A stretch of 64,000 nt of DNA, taken from NCBI GenBank assembly GCA_017937285.1, contig JAGBDU010000021.1:15987-79986 (forward strand). The letters run 5' to 3'. The notes beneath the pieces were generated by a model that made no database searches, was not told where the DNA came from, and saw only the letters and a program-made list of their open reading frames with translations. The translations under genes were made by a program, and so were the position numbers. Below are positions 8,263 to 55,235 of the stretch, piece by piece. The stretch comes from Clostridia bacterium. GTDB lineage: Bacteria; Bacillota; Clostridia; TANB77; CAG-508. The first letter of the stretch is position 1, and each line of letters begins with the position of its first letter.

Positions 8263-8320
8263 GCATTAAAATTTTTCATAAAAAGAGATTTGAACTAAAT
8301 TTTAGATCAAATCTCTTTTT

Positions 8321-28161: not shown

Positions 28162-28378
28162 AATTTATAAAAACATAAAAAATAAGATATGGAAATTATA
28201 TGAAATATCCTAAATGTAATGAAAAAAGTTGGAATAAAAAAGTATTAATTTAAGTTTGCTTTTGATATATAATTCGAAATGTAGATATAAGGATAATAAT
28301 GGTGACGGAAAAGAAGAGCAAATGGTTTTGAAGTGTTATTTAAATTTTTTTAATAAATAAAATTGAAGGATGGAAAAT

Positions 28379-29157: not shown

Positions 29158-29202
29158 CTCATAACCCGAAGGTCGTAAGTTCGAGTCTTACCCCCGCAAC
29201 CA
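29158..29202 (+). repeat. att-type direct repeat 1 = 3' half of an initiator tRNA-Met (anticodon loop to CCA)
   Basis: CTCATAACCCGAAGGTCGTAAGTTCGAGTCTTACCCCCGCAACCA. No D-arm or 5' acceptor strand (CGCGGGG) lies upstream. Confidence 0.8.
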
Positions 29203-29213
29203 AGAATTTGACT

Positions 29214-29396: not shown

Positions 29397-30587
29397 TTAG
29401 TTCTTATCGACTAATAAATTTTGCAAGACTATACCTGCACTTCTATTGTGAGAAGCAAGTGGATGCACATAGAAATTAAATGTCGTACTAATTTGTGCAT
29501 GTCCTAATCTTGCAACTACAACTGCTACATCAACATTTTGAGAAATAAGTAGAGTAGCATTTGTATGTCTGATACCATGGAAATTCAAATAAGGTAGTCC
29601 TATCTTCTGAACAAATTTAACAAACCATTTACTTACCGTATCAGGATGCATAGGTTTGCCATTATCTTGTACAAATAACCTATTAGATTCTTCCCAGAAT
29701 TCACCACAAAGATCTTTTTGATCATCATACCATAATTTATATTCTTCAAGTATTTCAATGACAGAATCAGGTATAGAAATGTGTCTATAAGAACTAGGTG
29801 TTTTAGGTGTCTTGGTATAAACTCCTGTACTTGCTAAATATTGACTTGATTTATTTACGGATATTTCTTTGTTTTTGAAATCAATATTTTCCCAGTCTAG
29901 TCCCATTAATTCTCCTAACCTTACTCCAGTAAATACTGTAAGAATAATAGCAACCTTATATTTTATTTCGCTATCTTTAAGTTCATTTAATCCTTTTAGA
30001 AGAACTCTGCATTGTTCATCATCGTAGAATTTACGTTGTGCTTTTGGTGCTCTTGGTGGTTGAACTCTATCTGCAGGATTATAAGGTATTAGTTGCCAAT
30101 ATACAGCCTTGTGTAGCATTGCACTTATTAGTCTATGATGTTCTAGAATAGTCTTTTTAGATAATGGTTTCAAAGTACGCTCACCATTATTTTTAGCAAG
30201 TCTTTTAATTTGTGTATCTTGTTCTAGCATATCATAAAGTTTCATAAGATCTGTAGGTTTAATTTTTTCTAAAGTAAAAGAGCATAAATATGGAAGAATT
30301 CTGCTTTCTAACATTCCAACATATCTGTTGTAAGTAGATGGCGCTAAATCCTTTGTACCATAATTTACTTGCCAAATATGATAGAATTCTTCAAAAGTTA
30401 CTGGCTTTCCTGCAGGTATTAATCCACGATTAGCTTCTGTAACAAATTCTGCAAGTGCAATTTCAGCATCTTTACGAGTTCCATGGATAGTTTTTGTTCT
30501 TCTTGCTCTAGATCCATCAAGATTTTTACCAGTAGATACTACTAACCTATAAGTATTTTCACCTCTTTTTTCAATACTCCCAGCCAT
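29397..30587 (-). CDS. int: tyrosine site-specific integrase
   Basis: MAGSIEKRGENTYRL N-terminus, core-binding domain, catalytic HGIRHTNATLL and LGHAQISTTFNFYVH. ATG at 30587 lies 9 nt after AAGGAGGTG. Confidence 0.9.
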   Translation of the reverse strand: MAGSIEKRGENTYRLVVSTGKNLDGSRARRTKTIHGTRKDAEIALAEFVTEANRGLIPAGKPVTFEEFYHIWQVNYGTKDLAPSTYNRYVGMLESRILPYLCSFTLEKIKPTDLMKLYDMLEQDTQIKRLAKNNGERTLKPLSKKTILEHHRLISAMLHKAVYWQLIPYNPADRVQPPRAPKAQRKFYDDEQCRVLLKGLNELKDSEIKYKVAIILTVFTGVRLGELMGLDWENIDFKNKEISVNKSSQYLASTGVYTKTPKTPSSYRHISIPDSVIEILEEYKLWYDDQKDLCGEFWEESNRLFVQDNGKPMHPDTVSKWFVKFVQKIGLPYLNFHGIRHTNATLLISQNVDVAVVVARLGHAQISTTFNFYVHPLASHNRSAGIVLQNLLVDKN

Positions 30588-30840
30588 TGCCTTTTTCACC
30601 TCCTTTCAGGCATAACCATGGGTGAGAGTTTCATATTTAATTGAGATTATTATATATCAAAATATTGATGATTACTAGTGGATTTTGCTTATTTTTCAAG
30701 TGTTACAAAGATTACAATAAGATTCATAAAAAAACTTACATAGAACAATAAAAAACTAGATAAAATGTAATATTAAGCTAAAATGTCGTAAAAAGTCGAA
30801 TTTTATCAGAAAAAAGTTAACACAAATTTTTATTCATATA

Positions 30841-34764: not shown

Positions 34765-35034
34765 TTAAAAAGGTAAATCCTCATCATTAAAATTCTCATT
34801 TTTATTATCATATCCATAAAATTTTGCGGCTTCATCTTCCCAGCCTTCATCATCAGCCCACATTTCTTCATAATCATCTTCGCACATATCATTCATACCA
34901 GATATAAATGACATATATGCTATAAATTCGTCATCGGGCATTGCATCAATCATTTTCTTATATTCTTCTTTTAATTGTTTTATCTCATTTGAAAATGGAT
35001 AATTCATTTTTTTATCACTTTTCTTCTTGCTCAT
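34765..35034 (-). CDS. small acidic protein downstream of the IS91 transposase
   Basis: ATG at 35034 sits behind GGAGGG, 15 nt after the transposase stop. Asp/Glu/Trp-rich, 89 aa. Confidence 0.45.
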   Translation of the reverse strand: MSKKKSDKKMNYPFSNEIKQLKEEYKKMIDAMPDDEFIAYMSFISGMNDMCEDDYEEMWADDEGWEDEAAKFYGYDNKNENFNDEDLPF

Positions 35035-35048
35035 ATTTTCCCTCCACA

Positions 35049-36200
35049 TCATATATTATACAATGGGAGGCGAGTGGATTTCAATATTTCTGGGTCTTTT
35101 ATTTTTAATTCGAAGAATATTAAGTTGCCACCACAACTGCAAATTGTGGTGGCATATCCAAAAGAAAGCTCAATTGCTAAATTCCATTTGCGTAATTGAT
35201 TTCTTATTTCAATTTGATTTTTATTTAATAATTTAAATATTTTATCTGAATGTTTATGTTTTTTTGCATAAATGCCGTAATATCTAACTACTTTGAAGTT
35301 TTTATCTGGAATATGCATTATTAATTTTTTTATAAATTCGTATGCATGTATTTTTTCTTCAATTCTTTTTCCGTCTTCATGTCGCTCATAATAATATGTT
35401 ACGTAAGTTCCATCATAATCTATAATTCTTGATTGAGCCATTGCGGGTCTGCCCGTGTATCGAACAACATAATTTATTGTTTGATTTATTGAAGAAATAT
35501 TATCTGGTTTAGCATATACATAAAATCCATTATTATATTCTTTATATATTTGATTTTTTAATTGTTTAAATTTTGGTAGTTCATTTGCGGGTAAATTGTT
35601 TTGTAAATAATCAAGAAGTAATTTTTGCCATCTAAAACGAAGTGCTTTAAAATTTATATGTTTAACAATTCTAAACACTTCTGTGTTGCCTGCACCACCT
35701 TCTGTGCATAACATATGTATATGCGGGTTCCATTTTAAATCTCTTCCAAATGTGTGTAATGTGCACATGATTCCTGGAGTAAAATTTTGAGATTTGTTTA
35801 ATTCATAAAACCAAGATAAAATTGCTGAAGAAGCAGAGCTAAAAAGGCCATCTAAAAGATTTCTGTATTTAAGAAAATAAGACCATAATTTATCAGACAT
35901 TGTAAAAACGATGTGGCGATGTTTACAACGAATAGATTTTTTTGTCATAGAGAAAGCCCTGTCTTGAGCATATTTTACACCACAAGTGTTGCAAAATCTT
36001 GATTTGCAACGAAATGGAACTTTAACGAATTTTTTGCAATGTTCACAGACATATAGAGCATATCCATAATCTGGATTACCACAATTCATTATTTTTTCTA
36101 CTTCATCAAATACAACTTGACGAATGTTTAATTCTGGATTTCTAACTATAAAATTATCCCAATTGTCGATGAATATTTGTTTTATCGTGAATTCAGACAT
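35049..36200 (-). CDS. tnpA: IS91-family (Y2 HUH rolling-circle) transposase
   Basis: N-terminal zinc-binding domain (CGNPDYGYALYVCEHCKKFVKVPFRCKSRFCNTCG), HTFGRDLKWNPHIHML HUH region, YVVRYTGRPAMAQSRI tyrosine region. Confidence 0.85.
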   Translation of the reverse strand: MSEFTIKQIFIDNWDNFIVRNPELNIRQVVFDEVEKIMNCGNPDYGYALYVCEHCKKFVKVPFRCKSRFCNTCGVKYAQDRAFSMTKKSIRCKHRHIVFTMSDKLWSYFLKYRNLLDGLFSSASSAILSWFYELNKSQNFTPGIMCTLHTFGRDLKWNPHIHMLCTEGGAGNTEVFRIVKHINFKALRFRWQKLLLDYLQNNLPANELPKFKQLKNQIYKEYNNGFYVYAKPDNISSINQTINYVVRYTGRPAMAQSRIIDYDGTYVTYYYERHEDGKRIEEKIHAYEFIKKLIMHIPDKNFKVVRYYGIYAKKHKHSDKIFKLLNKNQIEIRNQLRKWNLAIELSFGYATTICSCGGNLIFFELKIKDPEILKSTRLPLYNI

Positions 36201-36377
36201 ATGAATACATCCAAAGAGATAATAAAATAAAGAAAGTAAAAATAAAAGAAGAAAGCTCTAAATTGTAGAGCTCCAAGGGCGGAATTTATTCCGCTTTTTT
36301 AGAAAAAATAATTGTCGATTTGTGGAAAAAAACGTGAAAGTGTGATATAAGATATACTAGATAAAATATAATTAAAA

Positions 36378-38792
36378 GTGGTAATGAGTATGAATAAAAT
36401 ATATAAATTGTGTGAATACGGTGTATCAATTTATACTGTAAATAAATTAAAAAAATATACTGTAGAAGAATTAGAATATAAGATTGATGAAATAAATGAT
36501 ATTAGTGGATTGGGAATCGGTAAAAAAAATCAAATTAAAGAGATAATAAAAAGCGATAGGTTTAAAAATGATAAAAACTATAGTGTATTTGAATTATATG
36601 AATATGGTTTGAATTTACAACAAATAGAGAATTTATATAGAAATAATGTTGATATTTATAAAATTACGGATGAAGAGATAGATAGCATTGAAATAAGTAA
36701 ACAATTAAAAGACAAACTAAAAAATATAATTATATCTTTACGAATTAAAGATGATGAAGTTGGTAAAAATATAAGTTTTGCAACATTACTAGAAAGTGAA
36801 ATAAAGAAAATTTTGAATCCTTTTGAAATAATGTCAGTAAATATGTTAAGAAACAAAATTTTTAAAAGAAAAGAGTATCCTATAAATCACTTTATTGAGG
36901 ATTTAAATGATTTAAAAGACACTGGAGTTATAATAATGTCAAATGAAGGGGTATATTATAGCATACCAGAGTTGTTGGATTGCATTAAAAAATTAAAAAG
37001 TGAAAAAGATAAGGATATATTTATTGATAGAATTAATGGAAAAACACTATCTGAAATAGGTAATAAATATGGAATTACCAGAGAAAGAATACGACAGATA
37101 GTTGAAAGAAATTTAAGAAATCTACCTATTGTGAAAGAAGAAAAATATAAGTCTATATTTTCAACTTATGCTTGGGAAGAAAACATATTTTGTAAAATAT
37201 TTGATGTTGAACCATATGTGTATAATTTTTTAAATTTGAAATATAAAAAAGGTAGTATTGAATTAGTAAAATTATATGACGATGAACGTATAGATGAAAA
37301 GCAACAAGTTATTTTAGATAATTATTTAGGATATATTGAGTTATATGATGAAAAAATACCTAACAATCAGGAAACAATATTAAGACTATTTGCTAAACAT
37401 GAGGCAATAGAAATTATTTCAGTAGACGAGTTGTATGAAAAATATCAAAAAATTTCTGAAAAATATAATTTAAAAGAGATAGATGGAATTAGAAATTTTG
37501 AATCAATTTTATCTAGAAAAAATTATATATTAAATAATTTAAATAGAAAGATGAGATTTTACGATATAAATAAAGTGACAGATAAAATGAGAATAAATTT
37601 GAATGAAATATTAAATTGTGAACCAGGAGAATATTCAACTTTGTATTTTTATAATCTTCATAATGAATTAATGCAAGAATTAGAATTACAAAATGAATAT
37701 GAGTTGCATAATTTACTTAGAATTTTAGATATAAATAATGATAAAAACAAAATTATTTTTAATAAAATGCCACATATTTTTATAGGAATAACTGATAAAA
37801 AAATATTTTTTGAAGAACGCCTTAGAGAATTAGCTCCAATTTCAGTAGATGAAGCTGCCGAATTTTTTCAAAATCAATATGGTCATAAATATGAAACAAC
37901 AAGTGCATATTTGCGATTAGAATTTAAAACTTATATCAATAATAATATCATTAGTTTTGATATAGAACAGTTAAATGAAGACGTATTGAAGAGAATAAAA
38001 AAAAGAATTAATGAAGATTTGTGTACATTATCTAATGCCAGAGATATTTTTAAAATGATAATAGGAGATAACTATTTGAAATATTTTAATTCTTATAATT
38101 TTGAAAAAATAGGATATAGAGTTAGGGGAGATTATATTCAAAAAGATACAATTAATAATCTTGAGGAATATATTATTAATTGTTTTTTACAAAAAAAAGT
38201 TATTTATTCATATGATATTCCTTTATATGGATTAAATGTTATATATAATATATTAAGAAATTGTGAAAATAGATTTGATATTATTAAAATTAGTGAGGAT
38301 AAATATTTAAATTATTCAGTATTAGAAAATGCAGGAATAAGTAAAAAAGAACTTATTAATTATGGTGAGAGGATAAAAAGAGAATATTCTGCAGGTGATT
38401 TTTTTAATTTATATTCTGTAAGAAATCGTTTAGGGGAATGCAACTTAGATAATGAAGGATTTGAAGATATGTTTTATGAATCATTAATCTTCCATACAGA
38501 AGGAATAAAAAAAATAGGATTAAATAACAACAGCATTTTTTATATAACTTCTACGAGAGACAGACATGAATACCGTGCTAAGGATGTAATAAAAGATATA
38601 ATAGGAAGTCAAGAAGGAATGAGATTAGGGGATGTCTATGAAAAATTAGAAGATGAGTATGGAATAAAATTTGATAATGAATATTTGTTGATAGATTTAA
38701 TTAGAGAAAATAAATATTATTATAATCATATTTTAAATAAAATATATACAAGTAAAATAGCGTATTTAAATGAAATATATGAGGAGGAATAA
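36378..38792 (+). CDS. 804-aa protein with HhH-like repeats and a sigma-70 region-4-like HTH (gene A of candidate system)
   Basis: LCEYGVSIYTVNKLKKYTVEEL / LYEYGLNLQQIENLYRNNVDIY repeats, ISGLGIGKKNQIKEI, GKTLSEIGNKYGITRERIRQIVERNL. The rest has no motif I recognise. The start (GTG 36378 / ATG 36384 / ATG 36390) is uncertain. Confidence 0.6.
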   Translation: MVMSMNKIYKLCEYGVSIYTVNKLKKYTVEELEYKIDEINDISGLGIGKKNQIKEIIKSDRFKNDKNYSVFELYEYGLNLQQIENLYRNNVDIYKITDEEIDSIEISKQLKDKLKNIIISLRIKDDEVGKNISFATLLESEIKKILNPFEIMSVNMLRNKIFKRKEYPINHFIEDLNDLKDTGVIIMSNEGVYYSIPELLDCIKKLKSEKDKDIFIDRINGKTLSEIGNKYGITRERIRQIVERNLRNLPIVKEEKYKSIFSTYAWEENIFCKIFDVEPYVYNFLNLKYKKGSIELVKLYDDERIDEKQQVILDNYLGYIELYDEKIPNNQETILRLFAKHEAIEIISVDELYEKYQKISEKYNLKEIDGIRNFESILSRKNYILNNLNRKMRFYDINKVTDKMRINLNEILNCEPGEYSTLYFYNLHNELMQELELQNEYELHNLLRILDINNDKNKIIFNKMPHIFIGITDKKIFFEERLRELAPISVDEAAEFFQNQYGHKYETTSAYLRLEFKTYINNNIISFDIEQLNEDVLKRIKKRINEDLCTLSNARDIFKMIIGDNYLKYFNSYNFEKIGYRVRGDYIQKDTINNLEEYIINCFLQKKVIYSYDIPLYGLNVIYNILRNCENRFDIIKISEDKYLNYSVLENAGISKKELINYGERIKREYSAGDFFNLYSVRNRLGECNLDNEGFEDMFYESLIFHTEGIKKIGLNNNSIFYITSTRDRHEYRAKDVIKDIIGSQEGMRLGDVYEKLEDEYGIKFDNEYLLIDLIRENKYYYNHILNKIYTSKIAYLNEIYEEE

Positions 38793-38793
38793 A

Positions 38794-39999
38794 ATGAAAA
38801 ATTTATTAGAATTAAAAGAAAAAGTATCATTAACTGAATTATCAAAAAAAATAAATATAAAAGGAGAAACAAAGATTTATCCTGTATATAGAATTGCAAT
38901 AGAGGAATTATATTATAACAATCAAAATGATAGAATTGCTAGTCAAATTAGTGAATATATGGAAAATAATAATTTAGAAAACTTTGATGTAGACTATGAT
39001 AATTTATCTAAATATAATGATATTGTAGGTGAATTTATTAAAGCATCAAACATGCCAGCTTTTATGAAGACTAAAAATAATATTGAAAGATTTTCTCAAT
39101 TAGAGGCAGGTGTTGTAACAACAGATGGAAGAGTAATAGATGGAAACAGAAGATTTACATGCCTAAGAGAATTATCAAAAGATAATCCTCAGTTTGCATA
39201 TTTTAATGCAGTAATATTAGATGATGGCCAATTAACTCCAAAAGAAATTAAAACTTTAGAGTTAGAAATACAGCATGGTCAGGAAGAGAAAGTTGGATAT
39301 GATATAATTGATAGATGTGCAGGAATTTATAAAGATTTAATTAAAGAAGGGCATATGTTTACTCGTGAAGAGTATGCAAGAAGTACAGATGAAAAAATAT
39401 CTGATATAGATAAATTAATTGAAAAAACAAATTTGATTGTAGAATTTTTAGAGTTTATGAATGCCCCTGAAAAGTTTCATGTTGCGAGAAATTTAGAAAT
39501 TGATGGCCCAATAAGTGAGTTGATTCCATTGAAAAAAAACAGTTCTGAAGAAGAGTGGAATAAAATTAAAATAATTACTTTTGATAATATTATAACTAAA
39601 ACAGATAAAGATATAACAAGATATATAAGGGATATAAAAAAATATGTAAAAGATGATGAGCTTGATAATTATTTCGAAGAACATAGAGAAACTTCAAAGC
39701 AGATTCATACTAAACTTGAGAATATGGGCAATGTAACAATTGATAAAGTAAAAGAAGAGATTAGATCTAATGAGGATTTAAAAGAAAATGCTCGTAAAGT
39801 ATATGAGAAATATACAGATAAAGGAAAATTAAAAGAAGTTAAAGAGCAACCAATAAAATTATTAGAAAAAGTTTCGAATATTTTAGATGAAATAGATTTT
39901 AATGCTGTAAATAAAATGTCTATAGATGAAAAAGATAGATTCATATATTCTTTTAATGAAATTTTAAATAAGTTAAATAATATGAAGGGAAAGATATAA
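38794..39999 (+). CDS. ParB/Srx N-domain protein with long helical tail (gene B)
   Basis: ELYYNNQNDRI and GVVTTDGRVIDGNRRFTCLREL fit the ParB N-terminal domain boxes. ATG at 38794 lies 6 nt after GAGGAGG and 1 nt after the gene A stop. Confidence 0.65.
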   Translation: MKNLLELKEKVSLTELSKKINIKGETKIYPVYRIAIEELYYNNQNDRIASQISEYMENNNLENFDVDYDNLSKYNDIVGEFIKASNMPAFMKTKNNIERFSQLEAGVVTTDGRVIDGNRRFTCLRELSKDNPQFAYFNAVILDDGQLTPKEIKTLELEIQHGQEEKVGYDIIDRCAGIYKDLIKEGHMFTREEYARSTDEKISDIDKLIEKTNLIVEFLEFMNAPEKFHVARNLEIDGPISELIPLKKNSSEEEWNKIKIITFDNIITKTDKDITRYIRDIKKYVKDDELDNYFEEHRETSKQIHTKLENMGNVTIDKVKEEIRSNEDLKENARKVYEKYTDKGKLKEVKEQPIKLLEKVSNILDEIDFNAVNKMSIDEKDRFIYSFNEILNKLNNMKGKI

Positions 40000-40000
40000 A

Positions 40001-42598
40001 TTGTTAAATCAAATAAAAGTAAAGCCAAACTATAATAGCTATTATGATAATGTAGTCGATGATTTTTATGGAAATGTTTTAAATGAAAGTATTAGCTATG
40101 ATAGAGCATCTGCTTACTTTTCGGCAAAGGCATTAGCTAATATATCTCATAAAATTGATATTTTTTATAAAAATGGTGGGAAAATTCGATTGGTTATATC
40201 GAGTGAAATTACTTCAGATGAATACGAAATTATAAAAAATGGCTATGAAGCTAAAAAATCAATATATAATAGAATTGTTGATGAATTCGATAATGACACA
40301 TTAAATGAAATAGATGAAATAAATTTATCAAATTTAGCATATTTAATTGAAAAAGGCTTGGTAGATATAAAAATAGCATTTAAACCAGAAGGAATTTTTC
40401 ATGATAAATTTGGAATTATTGAAGATTTAGATGGAAATAAATTATATTTTAGAGGATCGAACAATGAAACAATTGCGGCAATAGAAAAAAATTATGAATC
40501 TTTTGATGTGACATGTTCTTGGTTAGCTAGTACATTTGAGATAGAAAAGATAAATATTGCTCGAATGCAATTTGAAGATTTATGGAATAATAATGTTGAG
40601 AATTTATATGTAATGGATATACCAGATATAATAAAGAATAAAATATTTTCGTATAGTAAAGGTAATATCATTACAACAAATAAATTAGATAAACTTAGTA
40701 TAAAATTCGATTTCGATGAAGATGAAAGCATATTTTATGCAAAATTGGGTGAAAATGTTGTTTTTAATATTAAAAATTATATATATAAGATGGATATAGC
40801 TTGGTTAGTAAATAAAATAGAATCTAATAAAATTATATTTAAAGAAGGAATTTCATATATAAAGTATAAGGAAATAATTGCTAAGTTTAAAGAATATTCT
40901 AAATTAGAGCGTGAAAAAGGAAATACAACTTTTATTTATGTTGAAAAACATTTAAATGAATATATTAGAAAAAAAGACTTTAAAATTAATGAAAGATGTG
41001 AATTAGGAAAATGTATTAAAGAAGAAAATAGAATTGAAAATGAGATAATTAAGTCTAGTTTTGATGAATTTTGTAAAATATTAGATGACAATATGGAAAG
41101 AAAGCTAAAACCAAAACAGTTATGGAATGCGTTTCATATTGTTAAAATGAAAAAGAGTGCTAATTTTTCAGTTCCAGGAGCAGGAAAAACAACTATCGTA
41201 TATGGAGCATATGCATATTTAAATAAAAAAAATTTAGTTGATAAGCTTATAGTTATTGGACCTAAAAGTTCATTTGCTTCATGGAAAAATGAGTTCGTAT
41301 TAAATTTTGGAGATAAAAAAGAATTAAAAGTTTGTGATATTCAATCAGTTTCTAAAAATGAGTTTATTGAGAATGCTGTTAATGCTAATCTAATTTTAAT
41401 TAATTATGAAGCATTACCAGGTTGGTATAGTGAAATAAAGTATATTTTAAAAGATAGTTCAATGTTGGTGTTTGATGAAGTTCATAAAATTAAAGGTATT
41501 GATAAAATAAGAGCTAAAATTGCAATTGACATATCACAAAAATCAAATTATAAAGTAGTATTAAGTGGAACTCCAATTCCAAATGGTTATGAAGATATTT
41601 ATAATATGTTAAATATTTTGTATATGGATGAATATAATGATTTTTTTGGGTTTACACCAAGGGAATTGAAAAATTGTAGAAATTCTAAAGAAGATGTTAT
41701 TAATGATAAAATATATCCATTTTTTTGTAGAACTACAAAAAGAGAGTTAAATGTACCAGAAGCTGAACCAGATAATATAATATATAGTCAAACTACTGAT
41801 GATGAGAAAATGTTATTTAAAGCTTTAAAACAAAAATATAAATCTAATCCATTTACTTATTATATTAGAATGATGCAGGCAATGACAAATCCAAAATTAT
41901 TGCTTTCTGATTTAGATAATAATGAAGTAAATAGTTTGTTTATAGATGATTCAGATGAAAGTTATTTTGAACAGGATATTACGATTGAAAATGTGGAAGA
42001 TAAATCTAAGCTAACAGATGAATATATAATTTCTTTAATTAATAAAATAAACCATACCGATAAATTTAAAAAAGGGTTAAGATGTATAATAGATTTAATT
42101 AAACAAGGAAAGAAAGTATTGGTATGGGGGATTTTTACAAACACATTATATAAAATTAGGGAAGAATTAATTTCTAATAATTATAATGCTGAAGTAATAT
42201 GTGGAAATGTTATTGATTTGAAAGAAAGAGAGAATATTATAGATAAATTTAGAAATGGGGAAATTGATGTTTTGATTGCTAATCCAAATACGCTTGCAGA
42301 ATCAGTTTCATTACATTCTATTTGTCATGATGCTGTATATATGGAATATAGTTTTAATTATACGCATATGGCACAATCAAGAGATAGAATAAATAGATTA
42401 GGGTTAAAAGCTGAAGATTATACTAGATATTATTATTTGGTTTCAGAACCATCTAATGGAAATGATTCTGTTGATTTAATTATATATAACAGATTGCAAG
42501 AAAAACAAAGATTAATGTTTGATGCAATTGAAAATGGAGAATTAGTTTCTGTAAAAGAAAATATAACAGAAGATATATTAAAATTATTAAAAGATTAA
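40001..42598 (+). CDS. PLD(HKD) nuclease-like domain fused to SNF2-family helicase/translocase (gene C)
   Basis: HKD motif is GIFHDKFGIIEDLDGNKLYFRGSNNET. Helicase motifs are VPGAGKTT (I), LVFDEVHKIKG (II), LSGTPIPNG (III) and AQSRDRINRLG (VI). TTG start lies 1 nt after the gene B stop. Confidence 0.8.
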   Translation: MLNQIKVKPNYNSYYDNVVDDFYGNVLNESISYDRASAYFSAKALANISHKIDIFYKNGGKIRLVISSEITSDEYEIIKNGYEAKKSIYNRIVDEFDNDTLNEIDEINLSNLAYLIEKGLVDIKIAFKPEGIFHDKFGIIEDLDGNKLYFRGSNNETIAAIEKNYESFDVTCSWLASTFEIEKINIARMQFEDLWNNNVENLYVMDIPDIIKNKIFSYSKGNIITTNKLDKLSIKFDFDEDESIFYAKLGENVVFNIKNYIYKMDIAWLVNKIESNKIIFKEGISYIKYKEIIAKFKEYSKLEREKGNTTFIYVEKHLNEYIRKKDFKINERCELGKCIKEENRIENEIIKSSFDEFCKILDDNMERKLKPKQLWNAFHIVKMKKSANFSVPGAGKTTIVYGAYAYLNKKNLVDKLIVIGPKSSFASWKNEFVLNFGDKKELKVCDIQSVSKNEFIENAVNANLILINYEALPGWYSEIKYILKDSSMLVFDEVHKIKGIDKIRAKIAIDISQKSNYKVVLSGTPIPNGYEDIYNMLNILYMDEYNDFFGFTPRELKNCRNSKEDVINDKIYPFFCRTTKRELNVPEAEPDNIIYSQTTDDEKMLFKALKQKYKSNPFTYYIRMMQAMTNPKLLLSDLDNNEVNSLFIDDSDESYFEQDITIENVEDKSKLTDEYIISLINKINHTDKFKKGLRCIIDLIKQGKKVLVWGIFTNTLYKIREELISNNYNAEVICGNVIDLKERENIIDKFRNGEIDVLIANPNTLAESVSLHSICHDAVYMEYSFNYTHMAQSRDRINRLGLKAEDYTRYYYLVSEPSNGNDSVDLIIYNRLQEKQRLMFDAIENGELVSVKENITEDILKLLKD

Positions 42599-42637: not shown

Positions 42638-42707
42638 AAATTTGCAAAAGGATCTTTACAAAATGGAGAAAAAATTATATAATGCAAGAATAGAAAGGAT
42701 GAGCAAA

Positions 42708-43911
42708 ATGGATAAAACAGTTTGTGAATTATTTGCAGGAGTTGGAGGATTTAGAATTGGTCTTGAAAGAGCAGATCCTAATTGGAATACAGTTTGGGCA
42801 AATCAATGGGAACCAGGTAAAAAAAGTCAACATGCATTTGATTGTTATGTATCACACTTTGGAAAAAATGAAAATTATATAAATGAAGATATAGCAAGTA
42901 TAGATAAAAATAATATACCAAATCATAATTTATTAGTAGGAGGCTTTCCTTGTCAAGATTATTCAGTAGCTAGAACTGGAGCAAAAGGAATGGAAGGAAA
43001 AAAAGGTGTACTTTGGTGGCAAATAAGAGATATATTGGAAACGAAAGCACCTAAGTTTGTTCTTCTTGAAAATGTAGATAGATTATTGAAATCGCCAGCT
43101 AGTCAAAGAGGTAGGGACTTTGGAGTAATTTTAGCTTGTTTTAATGATTTAGGATATACAGTTGAATGGAGAGTTATAAATGCTGCTGAGTATGGATTTG
43201 CTCAAAGAAGAAGAAGAACATTTATATTTGCTTGTAAAAATACCACAAATTATTATCATGATATTGAAGGAGAAAAGCTAGAGAATATCATTCATAAAAA
43301 TCGGTTTTTTTATTAAACAATTTGAGATAGGAAGTAATATTGATGGTAAAGAATATGAATTTAAATATGATGATGTATATGATGTATCAGAACACTTTAA
43401 ATTAGACTTTAAAAATGCTGGTGTGATGCGAAATGGAAAGATTTATACTGAAGATGTGAATCCTGTAGAAGTTAAATATACATCATTAAACAAGATTGTA
43501 GAAAAAGATGGAGTGGAAGACAAATATTATCTAGGTGATAATTTAGAAAAATGGAATTACTTAAAAGGTGCAAAAGATATATTAAGAAAAGCAGGAACTC
43601 CACACGAATATCATTTTAGAGAAGGAGCAATAGCTTTTCCGGATTCATTAGAAAAACCAGCTAGAACCATGCTAACAAGTGAAGGTAGTTTAAATAGGAG
43701 TACACATGTTATAGAAGATCCTAAAAGTAAATGTTACAGGTTATTAACTCCTTTAGAAACAGAGAGAATAAATGGATTCCCAGACAATTGGACAAATACT
43801 GGAATGCCACAAAATTTTAGATATTTTTGTATGGGAAATGCATTAGTTGTTGGACTTATAGAAAAAATGGGTATACAATTAAATGAAATATTTGAAAAAG
43901 AAGGAAACTAG
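42708..43911 (+). pseudogene. M.Sau3AI-like DNA (cytosine-5) methyltransferase, reading frame broken once
   Basis: Motifs I (ELFAGVGGF), IV (GGFPCQDYS), VI (ENVDRLL) and VIII (QRRRRTFIF) are in frame 0 up to the TAA at 43314. TRD, IX and X (PARTMLTSEGSLNRSTH, TPLETERINGFPDNW, GNALVV) are in frame +1. The junction lies at cataaaaatcggtttttttatt (43293-43314). Confidence 0.85.
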
Positions 43912-45041
43912 ATTCCTTCTTTTTTTAAAGATATTTCTTTATCTGAATAATTATAAGATATAAAACTTAAATCGTTCCATGTTCTATTTTCTACGGGATG
44001 ACTTGAAATTATATATTTTCTTTCAACAATTGATTTACCATTTTTTAATAAGTCTTTAGAAAAACTAGGTGCAACAATATATGCTTCTACCATTTCATAA
44101 TTACCATAAGCATAATTTTTAACTACCCAATCTACATATTTACTTATTTGTTCTGCAACTTCTATAGTAGCTTCTTCATTTTTGTTTTCAATAATTAAAT
44201 ATTTAGAAACTATTTTAGTATCCGGTAAAAATCTATACCCAAAAACATCAATTTTATCTATATAATCTATTGGTTTAAAAGGAGATGCTTCGACTTGATG
44301 AGAAATATAATCCCAATTACCAAACACAGAATTCTTATTGTTAGCTAGTTCTAAAACTACAGCTGATTCTAAAGCCATTTCGTGTTTTATTTTATTATCT
44401 TGTGTAGTTGCAAAATCAAGTATTGGTTTATAGGATAATAAATAGTCTTTATTTTGAAATTTGTTTTCATTTCTTTCTTGAAAGTCTGAAGAATAAGTAT
44501 AAGTATTTGTATTATTCTGATTACGTAACAAAATAAATTCTTTTAAAGAATTGTTTTCTTCATCATTTATTTTGGTAAATGATTTTTTCCAAAAAGTTCG
44601 TAAGGTTTTAAATGTATCTGGTTTATATGAAAGAACATCATCCATATCTACCGGATTGCAATAAAATTCTGGAGAAGGTTTAAAAATACAAATCCAACGA
44701 TTATTAACATTTGATGGATTATCATTTAATATCATTTCTTTAGATATATTTTCATAATTTTCTTGGATTGGAGTGGATGCAGTTGGATAATTAACAAATT
44801 TACAATCATTGCCTTTGCAAATTAGCTCCCCAATACCATATATTTTTCTATTTGTGAAAAAATATATATTATCTCCAGTTTTCATACTACAATAATCAGC
44901 AAAGGTACCTTCAAATGGTATAAAATTCCTTGTAGTTTCAGTTATTGGACTCATATTTGTTGAATAGCAACCATTATATATACAATTTTTTTATATTTCT
45001 TGTGCATTATCTTTTCCCAATGAAAAAATATAACCTGCCAT
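43908..45041 (-). pseudogene. PUA/EVE-like N-domain plus PD-(D/E)xK-like C-domain protein with in-frame TAA at codon 17
   Basis: Strong RBS (GAAGGAGAG) and ATG at 45041, 3 nt after the REase stop. MAGYIFSLGKDNAQEI-stop(44991-44993)-KNCIYNGCYST...GDNIYFFTNRKIYGIGEL. The C-terminal IDVFGY...LIIENK resembles a nuclease core. The tabulated start at 44954 has no RBS. Confidence 0.5.
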
Positions 45042-45043
45042 AA

Positions 45044-46429
45044 TTACTCTCCTTCTATTTGTTGTTTTATATAACTTGCATTTAGCCAAAAACATTTTTT
45101 TATTGCTTGTTTACCATCCAATGTTGGATAAGTATCTTGAGCATTTCTAGCATGAGGTCTAACATGTAATATAGGACTCTCTGATATTCTTGGTAAATTA
45201 TCATATTCATTATTTCTTATTCTTTCAATAGTATCTTCCCAAACTCTTTTTATTTCGGTATTTAAATCTTTTTCTGGTACATTCCAGAACATAGCTTTCT
45301 TGAAAATTAAAGTGTCTTCATCCACATACTGATATATCATAAATAAATATTTAGTAGTTGAAAAAGTTTCATATAGTTCAGAATCTAACCATGTTTCTTT
45401 AACAATCTCAGTATATTTAAAAGTCGGAAAAGACATAGACTCTTTTGGCATACCATCAGGTCTTAATCTAATAGCTTTTATTTTTATGTTAGCTTTTTCA
45501 AATTCTTCAATTTTTTCATTTACTACTTCTAACATTCCTTTTGCTAGTAAATATGTAAAAGATTTATTAGTTACCTGATATGGAATATTAAATTTATGCT
45601 TTAAGAACTCTATATCTTGATTATAATAGGGTTCTAGTTTGCTAATAATATATTGTTCTAGAGTTTGTTCTTTTAAGATATTAGCATCTTTTATGACAGA
45701 CTCATATTCTTCAGTTTTATTTACAATATAGTGGTTTAGAATATAAGACATATAAGAATTTTTTAAACAAAAAGCTCTTTGCATTGCTTTTTCAGAACTA
45801 AAAGGTTGTTCTCTTAAAGAGTTTGCATTAGCACCCTTAGTACAAGCACCTAAATAGTTTGTATCACTTTCAGATATTTCTTCTGCCTTACCATTTTTTA
45901 TTTTATCAATAATTATTTTATAATCATTTTTTATTATTTCTAAATCTTCTTCTGGAAATTGAAATAGTTTAATGTAATTTATTAAATAATCTAATCTTTC
46001 TTTATTTGGTTCGTATAAATAATAAATTAAAAGCATTAAGGCACATTTTTCATATGCATGGCTTTTTAAAAAATCTTCTTCTTTATAATCTTTCATGTAG
46101 TTAATAATAGTAAGTACAAGTCTTTCTTTTGCTCTTAAGTCACCGTTAGATTTTATAGTATATGGAGTAACTTTTAATTCAACTCCAGCTTCATTAAAAT
46201 CTGCCTCAGAATTACTATTTATATCATAGAAGAAAAAATGTTTTTCTATTAATTGACCTAATGACCCTTTTGATTTAGGGTTATTATAGTATTCAAATAA
46301 TACAGCTCTATCTTCATCTGTAATATTAGGGTCATTTAATAAAACGTCTTTAAATGTTTTTTCTTTTAGATTAAGTGCGTATTGAACAATTGATTCTTTT
46401 GAACTTCTTATATAAGGTAAATTATCCAT
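45044..46429 (-). CDS. Sau3AI-family type II restriction endonuclease
   Basis: AGVELKVTPY, KERLVLTIINY, LGACTKGANANSLREQPFS and QRAFCLKNSYM closely follow my recollection of R.Sau3AI. ATG at 46429 sits behind AAGGAGA. The ORF is uninterrupted (461 aa). Confidence 0.8.
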   Translation of the reverse strand: MDNLPYIRSSKESIVQYALNLKEKTFKDVLLNDPNITDEDRAVLFEYYNNPKSKGSLGQLIEKHFFFYDINSNSEADFNEAGVELKVTPYTIKSNGDLRAKERLVLTIINYMKDYKEEDFLKSHAYEKCALMLLIYYLYEPNKERLDYLINYIKLFQFPEEDLEIIKNDYKIIIDKIKNGKAEEISESDTNYLGACTKGANANSLREQPFSSEKAMQRAFCLKNSYMSYILNHYIVNKTEEYESVIKDANILKEQTLEQYIISKLEPYYNQDIEFLKHKFNIPYQVTNKSFTYLLAKGMLEVVNEKIEEFEKANIKIKAIRLRPDGMPKESMSFPTFKYTEIVKETWLDSELYETFSTTKYLFMIYQYVDEDTLIFKKAMFWNVPEKDLNTEIKRVWEDTIERIRNNEYDNLPRISESPILHVRPHARNAQDTYPTLDGKQAIKKCFWLNASYIKQQIEGE

Positions 46430-46592
46430 AATATTCTCCTTCAAGATTATTATATAGAAATTTGTTGAAATGAGCAAGGTTATGTAGAAAATTTTTAAAA
46501 AATGTGATACAATAAGCTCAAATTAAATATATAGCACTAAAGAAAAAAGTAGGGAGTATATCTTTACTTTTTCTTTACTAAGGGGGCAATTT

Positions 46593-47510
46593 ATGGAAGA
46601 AACAATTGAATTTTATGGATTTAGAGGTAATATTATCTTTCCTAATCAAGTTACTTTATTTAGTTTGGGATTTGAAAATAATTCAAAAGATAAAAATCAA
46701 GTTTTTACAAATTTTTTTAAAGAATTAAAAGAAAATGGAAGAGTAGATTCAGAGTATCAAAAAAGAAGATATTATTTGATTTTTATTAATCAATATGACA
46801 CAATTATACATTGTCAGTTGGCAAGAGAAAGAATTTATGATAAATACGAAATGACTCGTGAGAAAATAATTGGAACAAAAGACCAAGATTATCCTTTTAT
46901 AAATGTCTTTGTAGAATTAAAAACACAGAAATTTTTAATAGAATCTAAAACAATAATTTTTGAAAATTATAATACATGTAGCGATGTTATACAAAATATA
47001 ATGAATAAATACTTAAAAAAGATAGATGCAACTATTGATATAAATCCAATTATAGAAGAACAGGAATTTTGGAGTTTTTTTATAGAAGATAATGAAGTGA
47101 AAAATTTAAATTTTAATTTAGCAGTTCCTAATTTATTTGATGCAAGTGATGATGCAACAAGCTTTTTAAATGATGCTAGAGATAATGTTGGAGCTAGCAA
47201 TGTTTCTTTAAATTTTTCTAATTCAGAAGGAAGATTGAAGCCAAATAAAGAAGGAATAGAGTCTTTTGTAAAATATACAAGTGCCGGTGGAGGAACTTGG
47301 CGTTTGAACTATAAAGATAAAAACGGAGAGACAAAATCTGCTAATAGTAAGCAGAAAAGTAAAAAGATTAGCATAAAGTTTTTTAGAGAAGAAATAAATA
47401 ACTTATTAGATGAGAAAAAAGTTGAAACAATAAAATATGAAATGAGAAAAATAGAAACCATAGAAAAATTTAAGGAGGAATTGGATGAAAAAGAAGATAA
47501 CAATAATTAG
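46593..47510 (+). CDS. hypothetical protein (305 aa), first gene of a two-gene module
   Basis: ORF behind a GGGGG RBS. No catalytic motif is recognised. Its 3' end overlaps the next gene by 26 nt. Confidence 0.5.
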   Translation: MEETIEFYGFRGNIIFPNQVTLFSLGFENNSKDKNQVFTNFFKELKENGRVDSEYQKRRYYLIFINQYDTIIHCQLARERIYDKYEMTREKIIGTKDQDYPFINVFVELKTQKFLIESKTIIFENYNTCSDVIQNIMNKYLKKIDATIDINPIIEEQEFWSFFIEDNEVKNLNFNLAVPNLFDASDDATSFLNDARDNVGASNVSLNFSNSEGRLKPNKEGIESFVKYTSAGGGTWRLNYKDKNGETKSANSKQKSKKISIKFFREEINNLLDEKKVETIKYEMRKIETIEKFKEELDEKEDNNN

Positions 47511-47967
47511 TTTAATTACAATTTTAAGTTTTTTTGTGGGAACTACAAGAGAATCATTTATAATAAATGTTGAAGTGTTAGCACCTTTCCTGTTCACGTT
47601 GCTTGGATTATGTTTAACAGCATATACATTTATATATGCTCCAATTTCAGAAATATTAAAAAAAGATAGTATGAAAAACGATGAATCAAAGCAACGATTG
47701 CAAAAATTATTAGGAAGTTTTGAAGAGGATATGATGTTAATTTTCTTTATGACAATTATAATAATTATTCTTGATTTTATGAAACATGTTGATATTCCAT
47801 TCTTTAAAAATGCATTAAATTTAGATTTAGGAATAGTAAAGATAGGTTCTTTAAAAGAATATGTTTTTAATTTTATTATATCTATGAGTGCATGCTTTTC
47901 TTTCTATGCACTATATGATTTAATGCGAGCAACATTTAAAATATTAAGAAAAAGTTTTGATAAATAA
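47485..47967 (+). CDS. small multi-TM membrane protein (160 aa)
   Basis: ATG sits behind AAGGAGG inside the end of the upstream gene. There are four hydrophobic segments (IISLITILSFFVG, LAPFLFTLLGLCLTAYTFIY, MLIFFMTIIIIILDF, FNFIISMSACFSFYALY). Confidence 0.55.
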   Translation: MKKKITIISLITILSFFVGTTRESFIINVEVLAPFLFTLLGLCLTAYTFIYAPISEILKKDSMKNDESKQRLQKLLGSFEEDMMLIFFMTIIIIILDFMKHVDIPFFKNALNLDLGIVKIGSLKEYVFNFIISMSACFSFYALYDLMRATFKILRKSFDK

Positions 47968-48028
47968 ATTGAATATAGAAAAATTGTGATTTTAAAAAAA
48001 AATATATATAAATAAGGAGGCGGAGTTT

Positions 48029-48373
48029 ATGGCAAAATATACAGATGATGATATTATAAATAAATCTAAAATAAGCTGTCAAATTGCAGGGGATTATCTA
48101 GGAATTTCAGCTAATGCTGTTTCTATTGGTATGAGAAATAATTTATTACCGATAGGTTTTGCAGTTCATAATGAAGAAAATGATAGGGGATTTTCAGAGA
48201 GTTGGTCATATTATATAGTTGCTGAAAGGTTGATTGCATATAAATATGGAAAAATATCTGAAGTTAGAGTTCAAAATATTGAGAAGAATTTGGAAACTAT
48301 CATAAAAGAATTTGAATCAATGAAAAATGAATTACTTTTTATATTAAGCGAAAACGCAGAACAAGAGAACTAG
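48029..48373 (+). CDS. hypothetical small protein (possible HTH)
   Basis: 114-aa ORF behind AAGGAGG. ISCQIAGDYLGISANAVSIGMRNN is HTH-like. Confidence 0.45.
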   Translation: MAKYTDDDIINKSKISCQIAGDYLGISANAVSIGMRNNLLPIGFAVHNEENDRGFSESWSYYIVAERLIAYKYGKISEVRVQNIEKNLETIIKEFESMKNELLFILSENAEQEN

Positions 48374-48448
48374 AACTATATGAGTATGCGTTTTCGCTAG
48401 GAAAGTATGAAAATAAAGAAAAGAAATTTGAAGGAAAGGAAGATTTTT

Positions 48449-49708
48449 ATGGATAGTTTATCTATAAAATTTGAACGAAAAAAACTTTATGATGAAATTT
48501 GGGATATTTCATTAACAGGTGTTTCTAAAAAATATGGACTAAATTATACAAAATTGGTACAAGCTTGCAAAGAAAATAATATTCCATATCCATCTTCGGC
48601 ATATTGGACTAAGAAGAATATGGGATTGGATTTTTCAACTGAAATTGTTGAATTGACAGAATCAGAAGAAAAAGAAATTGAAATTCCATTAAAAAATACT
48701 GGAGTATTGATTGATGAAAAAGTTAGTAATAAAGACAAATTTATTCAAGAATTTAATTTTCTAAATTTTCTAGAAGAAGGTGAAAAAAAGAAGGTAGCTG
48801 AAGTTATTTATGACCTAAGTGTAGATAAATATAAGAGAAATCATAAAGTAATTATTGAATATAAAAATAAGAAAAAAGAAGAACGAAGAGAAGAAAGAAA
48901 AGCTAACTATTTTAATCCTTATTATAATGTTCATGATTATGTAGAAAAGGGATATTTTTCTAATATATCAAAACTACAAAAAGATAGATGTATGAAGATA
49001 TTAAGTGCGATTTACTTTGCAATAGAAGAACTAGGAGGAAAAGTAAACAACGATTTTTCACTACAAGTTCGTGAAGAACGTATTACAGTTGAAATAGAAG
49101 AATTACAAGATAAAGTAATGCATGAATTAACTAAAGAAGAGGCAAAAAAGCTATTAGAATATGAGGAATCCCAAAAGAGACATACATTTGGATATAAGCC
49201 TAATATAAGGAAGTATGATTATGTTTATAATGGTAAATTAAAAATAACTTGTGGTAACAGAAAATACATAAGAGAGAATGATAAAATAAGATTGGAAGAT
49301 AAACTAGGAGATATAATTATAAAATTATATGAACAATCTGAAGAAACGAAGAATGAAAGACTAGAAAGAGAAGAAATTGCGAGAAGACAAAGAGAAGAGG
49401 AAGAAAGAAAAGAAAAAATTAGAAATGCCAAAAAGAAAGAAGCACAAAAAATTAAAGAGTTGATAAATTGTGCAGAGGATTATAAAATAGCATGTGAGAT
49501 AAGAAATTATATTGATGCTGTTTCTAAAAAAGAAAACTTAACAGATGAAATAAAAGAATGGATTAATTGGGCTAATAAGAAAGCAAATTGGTTTGACCCT
49601 ACTATTGACGAAGAAGATGAACTTCTTGGAAAAAGAGACCATACAGAATCTATGGATAATAAAAATAATAAATTAGATAAATATGGTTCATATTATGATT
49701 GGTATTAG
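48449..49708 (+). CDS. hypothetical protein with N-terminal HTH-like domain and Glu/Lys/Arg-rich coiled coil
   Basis: LYDEIWDISLTGVSKKYGLNYTKLVQACKENNIPYPSSAYWTKK is a recurrent N-terminal module of uncharacterised bacterial proteins. ATG at 48449 sits behind AAGGAAAGGAAG. Confidence 0.5.
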   Translation: MDSLSIKFERKKLYDEIWDISLTGVSKKYGLNYTKLVQACKENNIPYPSSAYWTKKNMGLDFSTEIVELTESEEKEIEIPLKNTGVLIDEKVSNKDKFIQEFNFLNFLEEGEKKKVAEVIYDLSVDKYKRNHKVIIEYKNKKKEERREERKANYFNPYYNVHDYVEKGYFSNISKLQKDRCMKILSAIYFAIEELGGKVNNDFSLQVREERITVEIEELQDKVMHELTKEEAKKLLEYEESQKRHTFGYKPNIRKYDYVYNGKLKITCGNRKYIRENDKIRLEDKLGDIIIKLYEQSEETKNERLEREEIARRQREEEERKEKIRNAKKKEAQKIKELINCAEDYKIACEIRNYIDAVSKKENLTDEIKEWINWANKKANWFDPTIDEEDELLGKRDHTESMDNKNNKLDKYGSYYDWY

Positions 49709-55190: not shown

Positions 55191-55235
55191 CTCATAACCC
55201 GAAGGTCGTAGGTTCGAGTCCTACTCCCGCAACCA
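55191..55235 (+). repeat. att-type direct repeat 2 (tRNA-fMet 3' half, 3 mismatches to repeats 1 and 3)
   Basis: CTCATAACCCGAAGGTCGTAGGTTCGAGTCCTACTCCCGCAACCA, followed by its own terminator hairpin (agcatttgct...agcaggtgctttttt). Confidence 0.8.

Follow-up and report, generated by a model that had tools for sequence, protein, structure and literature searches.

We analysed a 64,000-nt window (the whole stretch of DNA under study) of a metagenome-assembled genome of a Clostridia bacterium (contig JAGBDU010000021.1), and all coordinates below are window positions. The window carries three co-directional genes, here called A, B and C, which very probably form a member of AbiR, a named abortive infection (Abi) system of lactococci, and which lie beside a C5 DNA methyltransferase in two pieces and a restriction endonuclease (REase) of the Sau3AI family. 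Related loci, more than 80 of which were fetched from one-genome-per-species contigs, are labelled L001 and so on.

The A-B-C operon

The operon consisted of the following genes:

36378..38792, + strand: gene A, AbiRa-like; 804 amino acids (aa) from GTG 36378; the TAA stop ends at 38792
38794..39999, + strand: gene B, AbiRb-like; 401 aa; ATG preceded by GAGGAGG, a Shine-Dalgarno sequence
40001..42598, + strand: gene C, AbiRc-like; 865 aa; TTG start

A preliminary description of this DNA had reported three co-directional genes 1 nt apart, and its coordinates, the GAGGAGG before B and the TTG start of C were all reproduced; by open reading frame (ORF) coordinates, the A-B and B-C intervals were 1 nt each. 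Gene A was 800 aa long in a 96%-identical homologue and in the gene calls of L090-L092. Because this homologue and the gene calls of independent assemblies agree on 800 aa, the true start of gene A is most likely ATG 36390, which would give a protein of that length.

The question of whether A, B and C occur together elsewhere could be answered from the related loci. Dozens of species have kept the triplet together, at 24-65% identity, and the association is therefore far beyond chance. Comparison of the window with L092, a 98%-related strain from another sample, gave ratios of non-synonymous to synonymous substitution rates (dN/dS) of 0.080 for A, 0.035 for B and 0.116 for C, indicating purifying selection on all three genes.

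Domain composition of the three proteins

Protein A had been described as two helix-hairpin-helix (HhH)-like repeats and a sigma-70 region-4-type helix-turn-helix, followed by ~550 aa without any motif. The first two elements were confirmed. Pfam placed Sigma70_r4 at aa 212-249 (E 2.6e-8), and the A family profile, searched against PDB sequences, matched the C-terminal domain of the RNA polymerase (RNAP) alpha subunit (alpha-CTD) at ~9-60 and ~53-128 (E 1e-8) and region 4 of primary sigma factors at 205-259. The remaining part, in contrast, was not motif-free: in the AlphaFold2 (AF2) model (predicted local distance difference test score, pLDDT, 88.7) the last ~550 aa formed a chain of ~8 winged-helix units, and the best Foldseek matches in the PDB were tandem winged-helix arrays (UFL1, SelB WH1-4, Rpc5 and ESCRT-II). 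Protein A is laid out as two alpha-CTD-like HhH modules at aa ~7-100, sigma-70 region 4 at aa ~209-249 and then ~8 winged-helix domains.

The recognition helix of protein A reads GITRERIRQI, and residue-level alignment showed that its core, TRERIRQI, is the same as in the primary sigma factors of S. aureus and other bacteria. Across the A family, R237 and Q240 of the sigma region 4 were invariant and R235, E236 and R239 nearly so, in an alignment with a mean column identity of 22%. The number of alpha-CTD-like repeats in relatives of A ranged from 1 to 5. The last ~270 aa of A, encoded from 37980 and termed A-CTD here, proved to be a portable C-terminal module, which was found in 507 representative clusters and was C-terminal in all of them. 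Two of the heads to which it is joined, P0400 and P0315, had no Pfam or PDB match.

Protein B gave no match in the Pfam, NCBIfam or PADLOC hidden Markov model (HMM) scans, and its profile found nothing relevant among PDB sequences; the kinship with ParB was visible at the fold level alone. The AF2 model (pLDDT 89.7) showed a ParB/Srx-fold N-domain and a middle domain, followed by a long helical C-terminal half. All of the top six Foldseek matches belonged to the ParB family, five of them at probability 1.00, and they included Noc 7ol9, pNOB8 ParB-N 5k5d (rank 2) and Spo0J 1vz0. The motifs NxxNDR and DGNRR (the GxRR box) were invariant in the family alignment, with DGNRR in 85/86 members. Protein B thus unites the two hallmarks of the ParB/Srx superfamily, the ParB N-domain fold and the GxxR/GxRR box, and the ParB/Srx N-domain boxes first read from its sequence are upheld by both the fold match and the conservation of those motifs. 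The clamps ParB, Noc and KorB, which are gated by cytidine triphosphate (CTP), resemble B in the fold of their N-terminal and DNA-binding domains, in the GxRR box and in the upstream NxxNDR motif. B differs from them in having no ParB Pfam match, parS or ParA, in the long helical domain that makes up its C-terminal half, and in a context of defence rather than segregation; CTP binding by B is putative.

Protein C contained PLDc_2, SNF2-rel_dom and Helicase_C in the Pfam scan. Its head (aa ~1-230) is a nuclease of the phospholipase D (PLD) type with a single HKD motif, and a linker connects it to an SNF2 ATPase in which Walker A (GAGKT), DEVH and Helicase_C are present. The HxK...GSxN motif was intact, and across the family the HKD motif was present in 30/30 members and Walker A in 67/67. 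The motor matched Snf2 and INO80 among PDB sequences. With HxK(x)4D/E...GSxN and the SNF2 motifs I, II and VI all present, C is an HKD/PLD-nuclease SNF2 ATPase, in agreement with the earlier view of it as an HKD nuclease motif fused to a complete SNF2 translocase. In the PADLOC scan the head alone (aa 2-225) matched PbeA (E 3e-67), and weak matches were obtained to DrmD (partial, E 2.6e-10), DpdE (E 1e-7) and ZorD.

The adjacent methylase and restriction endonuclease

Downstream of the operon, the following features were found:

42655..42683, + strand: promoter-like TTTACA-17-TATAAT, the best + strand match, upstream of the methylase ATG; a weak indication
42708..43316, + strand: C5 methyltransferase N-half, motifs I-VIII; Pfam DNA_methylase 3-168/324, PADLOC MTase_II
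43312..43911, + strand: C5 methyltransferase C-half, target recognition domain and motifs IX-X; Pfam 221-321/324; frame open from ~43312
43908..44954, - strand: 348-aa gene between methylase and REase, co-directional with and downstream of the REase
45044..46477, - strand: Sau3AI-family (MutH-fold, GATC) REase; longest ORF 477 aa (461 aa in the L090 gene calls); Pfam MutH

In the scan of this AT-rich DNA for promoters and terminators, matches were not above chance (67 promoter-like matches found vs 70.7 expected). The REase matched PADLOC REase_II at E 1e-100 and Sau3AI (4pxg) at E 1.9e-64. The 348-aa gene had no Pfam or PADLOC match and no homologue in the related loci, and was absent from the closest relatives, L092 and L094. 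It looks like a strain-specific insertion, and its membership of the system is doubtful.

The longest ORF of the methylase N-half begins at 42609 and homologues align from ~42708, and the first canonical start of the C-half is GTG 43423. Alignment with the intact orthologues of L094 and L008 showed that the split is a 1-nt insertion, AAAAAT[C]GG, near 43302, which creates a stop. With one base removed, the sequence encodes a 433-aa methylase with full-length identities of 45-72% to the methylases of other A-B-C loci. The insertion is common to the window, the independent assembly L090 and L092. We rejected slippage in the T7 run and assembly error as origins of the split, since the insertion is present in L092 even though the T-run there is interrupted, and it recurs in L090. 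In L092 a second-frame ATG lies exactly at the split junction, where the window has ATA.

Over the N-half, the window and L092 differ by 38.5 synonymous and 27.5 non-synonymous changes (dN/dS 0.143), and over the C-half by 64.8 and 26.2, respectively (dN/dS 0.053). The REase gave a dN/dS of 0.096, and the values of the methylase halves are comparable to those of A, B, C and the REase. Because both halves are under purifying selection, the split C5 methylase is probably a functional two-piece enzyme and not a decaying pseudogene, and the repair of the methyltransferase that had been proposed is probably unnecessary. M.AquI is a precedent for a two-piece methylase.

Probable membership of the operon in AbiR

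AbiR of the Lactococcus lactis plasmid pKR223 was named in 2000 (Twomey), and its operon was defined in 2006 (Yang et al.) (PMC13064643). According to this 2026 review of lactococcal Abi systems, AbiRa is sigma70-like, AbiRb is ParB-like and was superimposed on PDB 5K5D, and AbiRc joins an N-terminal ATP-dependent endonuclease to an INO80/Snf2-like ATPase (PMC13064643). The operon adjoins the LlaKR2I restriction-modification (R-M) genes and depends on the LlaKR2I methylase, in whose absence it is toxic (PMC13064643, citing Yang et al. 2006). AbiR impedes phage DNA replication; a ternary complex has been predicted, and the sigma-like protein has been suggested as a possible sensor (PMC13064643). 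LlaKR2I, Sau3AI and MutH are related, GATC-cleaving enzymes (PMC4471560). DefenseFinder tracks AbiR/AbiRc (PMC12278908), and abiR homologues have been reported in S. aureus.

The window shows the same set of components: a three-gene operon encoding a sigma70-like large protein, a ParB-like protein and an N-terminal endonuclease joined to an Snf2 ATPase, beside a Sau3AI/LlaKR2I-family GATC R-M with a C5 methylase. The two systems share the operon architecture, the match of the ParB-like protein to 5K5D, the Sau3AI-family R-M pair and a location on a mobile element, and the published methylase dependence of AbiR fits the co-occurrence of methylase and HKD nuclease that we found across relatives (see below) and, indirectly, the purifying selection on both halves of the split methylase. 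They differ in host and element, AbiR residing on a lactococcal dairy plasmid and the window locus on a chromosomal integrative island of an uncultured member of the Clostridia. In the window, moreover, a frameshift divides the methylase, and methylase and REase are separated by an additional 348-aa gene. On the basis of the architecture, the common structural match 5K5D and the Sau3AI-family R-M partner, we regard the window locus as very probably a member of the AbiR family, likened to pKR223 AbiRa/b/c by published description and not by sequence.

The preliminary description had presented the operon as uncharacterised and as the best candidate for a novel defence system, with a protein A that had no known counterpart. 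Neither claim survived. Protein A has a counterpart in the published AbiRa, a sigma70-like large protein, and the triplet matches the named AbiR, a match made via the literature and not via HMM libraries. By that description's own standard, namely assignment of the triplet to an already named system, the reading as a novel system is therefore refuted. Literature searches by domain vocabulary and by enterococcal accession did not find the system, which surfaced through the lactococcal Abi review.

Four other systems with similar parts were considered and rejected. The absence of the signature partners of DISARM and Dpd, noted earlier, was confirmed, in that PADLOC and Pfam scans of all genes at 27-54 kb found no DrmA, DrmB or DpdA-type gene. 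DISARM (DrmD SNF2, DrmC PLD, DrmMII C5 methylase) resembles the window in combining SNF2, PLD and a C5 methylase, and both would be expected to act against unmethylated DNA. It was rejected because its core, the DrmA helicase and DrmB (DUF1998), is absent and C gives only partial DrmD matches (~E 1e-10, C-terminal lobe); moreover, PLD and SNF2 form one polypeptide in the window. Dpd was rejected as the island has no DpdA (tRNA-guanine transglycosylase-like), DpdB, DpdC or preQ0 genes, B has no DpdB match and C matches DpdE only weakly.

PbeA (PMC6459918, PMC10853773) has, like C, a homologous N-terminal HKD head fused to a superfamily 2 motor. PbeABCD and CxC-ABC-DndE were rejected since the operon contains no ABC ATPase or DndE and the PbeA match is limited to the HKD head of C. 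The motor of C is SNF2 and not of the ResIII/DEAD type, and PbeB, PbeC (CxC ABC ATPase), PbeD (DndE-like) and phosphorothioation genes are all absent. The DUF499-centred, BREX-related Type-2 BR (PMC12839542) shares with the window an effector in which an N-terminal HKD endoDNase is joined to a Swi2/Snf2 helicase, as well as R-M-like logic and a dedicated methylase. It is built on a DUF499 AAA+ ATPase, an N6-adenine methylase and DUF3780 and has no ParB-like or sigma-like component; it was rejected because Pfam scans of the neighbours found no DUF499, DUF3780 or N6-methyltransferase and the window methylase is a C5 enzyme.

Distribution and variants of the family

At 90% identity, more than 1,300 homologue clusters were found for B and more than 1,100 for C; for A, the word-indexed search detected 66. 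Among 185,579 species genomes, at least 245 contained relatives of B; most were Firmicutes, and the others included Coriobacteriia, Treponema, Fusobacteria and Melainabacteria. The fetched loci fell into three architectures: A-B-C with an HKD-SNF2 protein; A-B-C', in which C' is SNF2 only (~625 aa); and A together with a long B, C being absent. In the third architecture, B carried an N-terminal Swt1-type HEPN domain with RNxxxH intact at nine loci and a C-terminal extension at five. B was fused to C' in S. pasteuri. A search for a fourth conserved component among the related loci found none, the mid-sized clusters being antisense shadow ORFs.

The five loci with extended B (L045, at 4015-5730, L052, L063, L064 and L078) lack a C gene, and their A is very long, reaching 1330 aa and as many as five alpha-CTD repeats; an unrecognised ~170-aa C-terminal extension of B takes the place of the N-terminal HEPN; this extension may be another effector type. 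At six HEPN-B/A loci (L087, at 13670-14302, L071, L074, L076, L083 and L086) a conserved ORF of ~160 aa lies directly 3' of A and may be a third component of the HEPN-B subtype.

The triad was present on 66 plasmids, mostly of Enterococcus and mostly conjugative or mobilizable, where it sits in cargo regions beside MazF, Fic or Type I R-M and not in the replication/partition region. In a phage collection only four weak partial matches to B were found, indicating that the system is not phage-borne. Two plasmid loci of lactic acid bacteria had no A. In L096 (L. lactis pIBB109_AgSa_3, 2720-10734), B-C' lies immediately downstream of a Type III Mod/Res pair. L097 (L. plantarum CP096858, 2070-9320) carries dcm, B, an HKD-SNF2 C, a stand-alone homologue of the Sau3AI C-terminal domain (247 aa) directly after C, and Vsr.

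Coupling of the HKD form to the GATC restriction-modification genes

A C5 methyltransferase lay within 10 kb at 17/28 HKD-SNF2 loci vs 2/35 SNF2-only loci and 0/14 loci of the third architecture (Fisher p = 2.8e-6). When only HKD loci with flanks of at least 4 kb were counted, the fraction was 17/20. The linked methyltransferases belong to one orthologous family, with 45-72% full-length identity to the repaired window enzyme, the exceptions being the L054 methyltransferase and a second copy in L084. The same MutH/Sau3AI-type REase accompanies them, in varying gene order and orientation.

Fusions join the two sets of genes more directly. In L032, one ORF of 1311 aa encodes a complete Sau3AI-like REase and a complete A. 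Bacillaceae have an extra protein of ~517 aa that consists of a homologue of the Sau3AI C-terminal domain and a copy of the last ~270 aa of A; the former matched 2reu/7xm0 at E ~1e-17 and aligned to Sau3AI residues 269-477. This fusion occurred in at least 8 distinct 50%-identity clusters, and at L036, L042, L073 and L084 it is accompanied by a methyltransferase and no complete REase. The REase-domain fusions are Rosetta-stone links of GATC recognition with the A-B-C machine. Sau3AI itself (4pxg, 2reu, 7xm0) is a direct homologue of the neighbouring REase of the window, and its non-catalytic, GATC-binding C-terminal domain is the module fused to A-CTD in relatives; Sau3AI is a stand-alone type II enzyme, whereas its family is here coupled by linkage and fusion to a ParB/SNF2/HKD machine. 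The suggestion that the system reads the 5-methylcytosine (m5C) set by the adjacent GATC-type methyltransferase stands, in view of the co-occurrence of methyltransferase and HKD nuclease, the fusions and the published methylase dependence of AbiR.

Three HKD loci (L018, L023 and L070) have neither methylase nor REase and carry, upstream of B-C, a pair of A paralogues (~905 and ~660 aa). The second, shorter paralogue is without alpha-CTD repeats and may be an alternative specificity subunit. In L001 (C. perfringens), a 323-aa protein at 6220-7191, between the Sau3AI-type methylase and gene A, carries the AspBHI N-terminal domain (PF18062), which is SRA-like and binds m5C.

The island and its surroundings

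The ends of the island and its integrase were located as follows:

29158-29205 and 55191-55238: direct repeats, ~45 nt, imperfect, 20 nt exact; they resemble the 3' half of a tRNA-Met-like gene
29397-30599: integrase, upstream of gene A

The integrase and all island defence genes lie between these two repeats, which points to an integrative island of ~26 kb; the repeats are probably its attachment (att) sites. ARAGORN called no tRNA at either repeat copy. Pfam and PADLOC scans of the neighbours corroborated the earlier description of an integrase-bounded island with defence genes: upstream of gene A lie the integrase, a PifA-like KAP NTPase and an IS91 transposase, and downstream lie the Sau3AI-like R-M, four genes without a match, AbiLi/AbiLii and a Ppl/GajA-like ATPase. 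Among 115 flanking genes at related loci, the PADLOC scan found GajB, DRT and PDC-S48 as defence neighbours.

The IS91-family transposase (Y2_Tnp and Zn_Tnp_IS91) and a 95-aa ORF occupy 34765-36200 (- strand), directly upstream of gene A, and a terminator-like hairpin lies at 36252-36274; the IS91 element is missing upstream of A in L092. The four co-directional genes at 46593-49708 (+ strand; 305, 160, 114 and 433 aa), between the REase and AbiL, had no Pfam or PADLOC match and are candidate uncharacterised defence genes. In L092, genes of 309 and 163 aa follow the REase, sizes close to those of genes in this group.

Just beyond the two island ends, at 28370-28960 and 55902-56483, are paralogues of a TehB-like S-adenosylmethionine-dependent methyltransferase with 68% aa identity. 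To the right of the island lie a SoFic-like Fic protein and an AAA_21 and RloB (AbiL-like) pair, at 58351-59412 and 60266-62148. Since the Fic protein and this second AbiL-like pair are outside the island, defence genes continue past the att repeat.

Proposed mechanism and alternative explanations

Taken together, we consider it likely that the ~26-kb island carries an AbiR-family system with a Sau3AI/LlaKR2I-family R-M pair, and that the whole is a restriction module that depends on ATP and is gated by methylation, rather than a classical Abi system. A defence role is suggested by the swappable effector, which includes HEPN, the island and plasmid-cargo context, the sporadic spread, the conserved catalytic motifs and the purifying selection. 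In this scheme the C5 methyltransferase, to judge from its homology and its Sau3AI-family partner, would mark host GATC sites, and A-B-C would attack DNA without the GATC mark; the latter step is proposed because AbiR is toxic without the LlaKR2I methylase and the coupling to a methylase is family-wide. Protein A, with its alpha-CTD-like HhH modules, sigma region 4 and winged-helix array, would serve as a DNA-binding scaffold. Its A-CTD may be an adaptor that carries alternative DNA readers, including the Sau3AI GATC-binding domain seen in the fusions. From its fold and motif, B is probably a ParB-like DNA clamp gated by CTP or another nucleoside triphosphate, and we infer that it is the hub of the complex because it is kept in every variant. 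The motifs of C suggest that it is the effector, in which the SNF2 motor would translocate and the single-HKD head would pair with that of a second copy to cut. Related systems keep B and usually A and exchange the effector for SNF2 alone or for a HEPN RNase fused to B, and have no methylase.

Several points weigh against a methylation-gated restriction module of the AbiR type. The PADLOC v2.0.0 and NCBIfam r20 scans of A, B and C returned no AbiR-named match and no system assignment. The GATC specificity of the methylase is presumptive, the A of the window carries no fused GATC or m5C reader, and methylation sensing by A, B or C is putative. The review does not list the REase among the requirements of AbiR (PMC13064643), and the published AbiR phenotypes (heat sensitivity, impeded phage DNA replication, classification as Abi) do not alone show DNA cleavage. 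The SNF2-only and HEPN variants have no linked methylase, so that something other than methylation status must trigger the A-B core, and the few plasmid loci without A weaken its role as a constant scaffold.

In the main alternative explanation, the locus belongs to the AbiR family but works as an infection-triggered, abortive-type sensor: the RNAP-derived modules of A would bait phage takeover proteins or read strong phage promoters, the sensing event would license B and C, and the methylase would merely limit collateral damage or act as a protein-level antitoxin. Such a sensor would account for a sigma region 4 helix that retains the TRERIRQI of primary sigma factors, with key residues invariant or nearly so despite the low mean column identity of 22%, for alpha-CTD-like repeats that vary from 1 to 5 copies, and for the methylation-independent trigger required by the SNF2-only and HEPN variants, which keep A-B without a methylase. 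A HEPN RNase effector is typical of abortive systems (PMC3710099), AbiR has historically been classed as Abi, and the review proposes the sigma-like protein as a possible sensor (PMC13064643). However, a phage protein partner of A is conjecture, and sigma region 4 and HhH modules are ordinary DNA-binding domains. In the HKD class, the repeated fusion of the GATC domain to A or A-CTD and the confinement of the methylase to nuclease forms argue for self/non-self reading at the DNA level, and toxicity without the methylase in uninfected cells opposes a strictly infection-gated trigger (PMC13064643). On balance we consider an abortive-type sensor unlikely.

The remaining alternatives are less probable still. 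An unnamed three-gene system that merely echoes DISARM and Dpd would explain why neither B nor the body of A is covered by a model in PADLOC v2.0.0, Pfam or NCBIfam r20, and why database annotations are generic ('SNF2-related protein', 'ParB N-terminal domain-containing protein'), and the pKR223 AbiR was compared with the locus by description only. We hold this to be quite improbable, since the AbiRa/b/c description matches piece by piece, including 5K5D and the R-M partner family (PMC13064643, PMC4471560), and abiR homologues are reported in staphylococci, where the A-B-C family also occurs. That A-B-C and the Sau3AI-type R-M are independent and co-located since defence genes cluster is very improbable. 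Islands do routinely mix unrelated systems, the present one also holding KAP-NTPase, AbiL and Ppl/GajA-like genes, and three well-flanked HKD loci lack a methylase, but nearly always the same orthologous methylase and REase family accompanies the HKD form across differing gene orders, REase domains are fused in frame to A or A-CTD, variants without the nuclease show a strong depletion of the methylase (p = 2.8e-6), and a genetic dependence has been published (PMC13064643). We give hardly any credence to a function outside defence, in which a mobile element would use the genes as a ParB-based module for partition, silencing or transcription. The ParB fold of B, the sigma-like helix-turn-helix of A and the presence of the triad on 66 plasmids, mostly conjugative or mobilizable, would suit it; against it, the neighbours of the triad on plasmids are cargo genes (MazF, Fic, Type I R-M) and not the replication/partition region, the effector is either an HKD nuclease or a HEPN RNase, and the anti-phage activity of AbiR is experimentally established (PMC13064643).

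Implications for the AbiR family

Since the locus matches the named AbiR, it should no longer be put forward as a novel defence system. The window locus is an ordinary new instance of a named system whose mechanism is itself still unsolved, and the interest lies in patterns at the level of the family, not in the locus itself, because these patterns make the AbiR mechanism testable. A methylase is needed only alongside the HKD nuclease, a Sau3AI-derived GATC-binding domain has repeatedly been joined to the C-terminal module of AbiRa, and the ParB-like protein is the constant hub. The family reaches well past lactococci: it spans at least 245 species, occurs on 66 plasmids and includes nuclease-free and HEPN variants.

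Speculatively, AbiR may be one branch of a much larger modular family. Its hub would be the ParB-like clamp B, and its scaffold A, made of RNAP promoter-recognition modules (1-5 alpha-CTD copies and a sigma region 4 with the -35-reading helix of primary sigma) and a winged-helix chain, would accept alternative DNA readers, such as the allosteric GATC domain of Sau3AI, through its portable C-terminal adaptor. The effectors would be interchangeable, namely HKD-SNF2 together with an obligatory methylase, SNF2 by itself or a HEPN RNase. Promoter-like recognition or mimicry of RNAP would let A sense phage takeover or foreign DNA, and a ParB clamp gated by CTP would relay the signal to the effector; we regard this proposal, taken as a whole, as doubtful. 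As far as our searches show, such a larger family containing AbiR has not been described before. It would be a natural case of a ParB-type clamp serving immunity and, if the proposal is true, promoter-like or RNAP-mimicry sensing relayed by a ParB clamp would be a new sensing principle in bacterial immunity.

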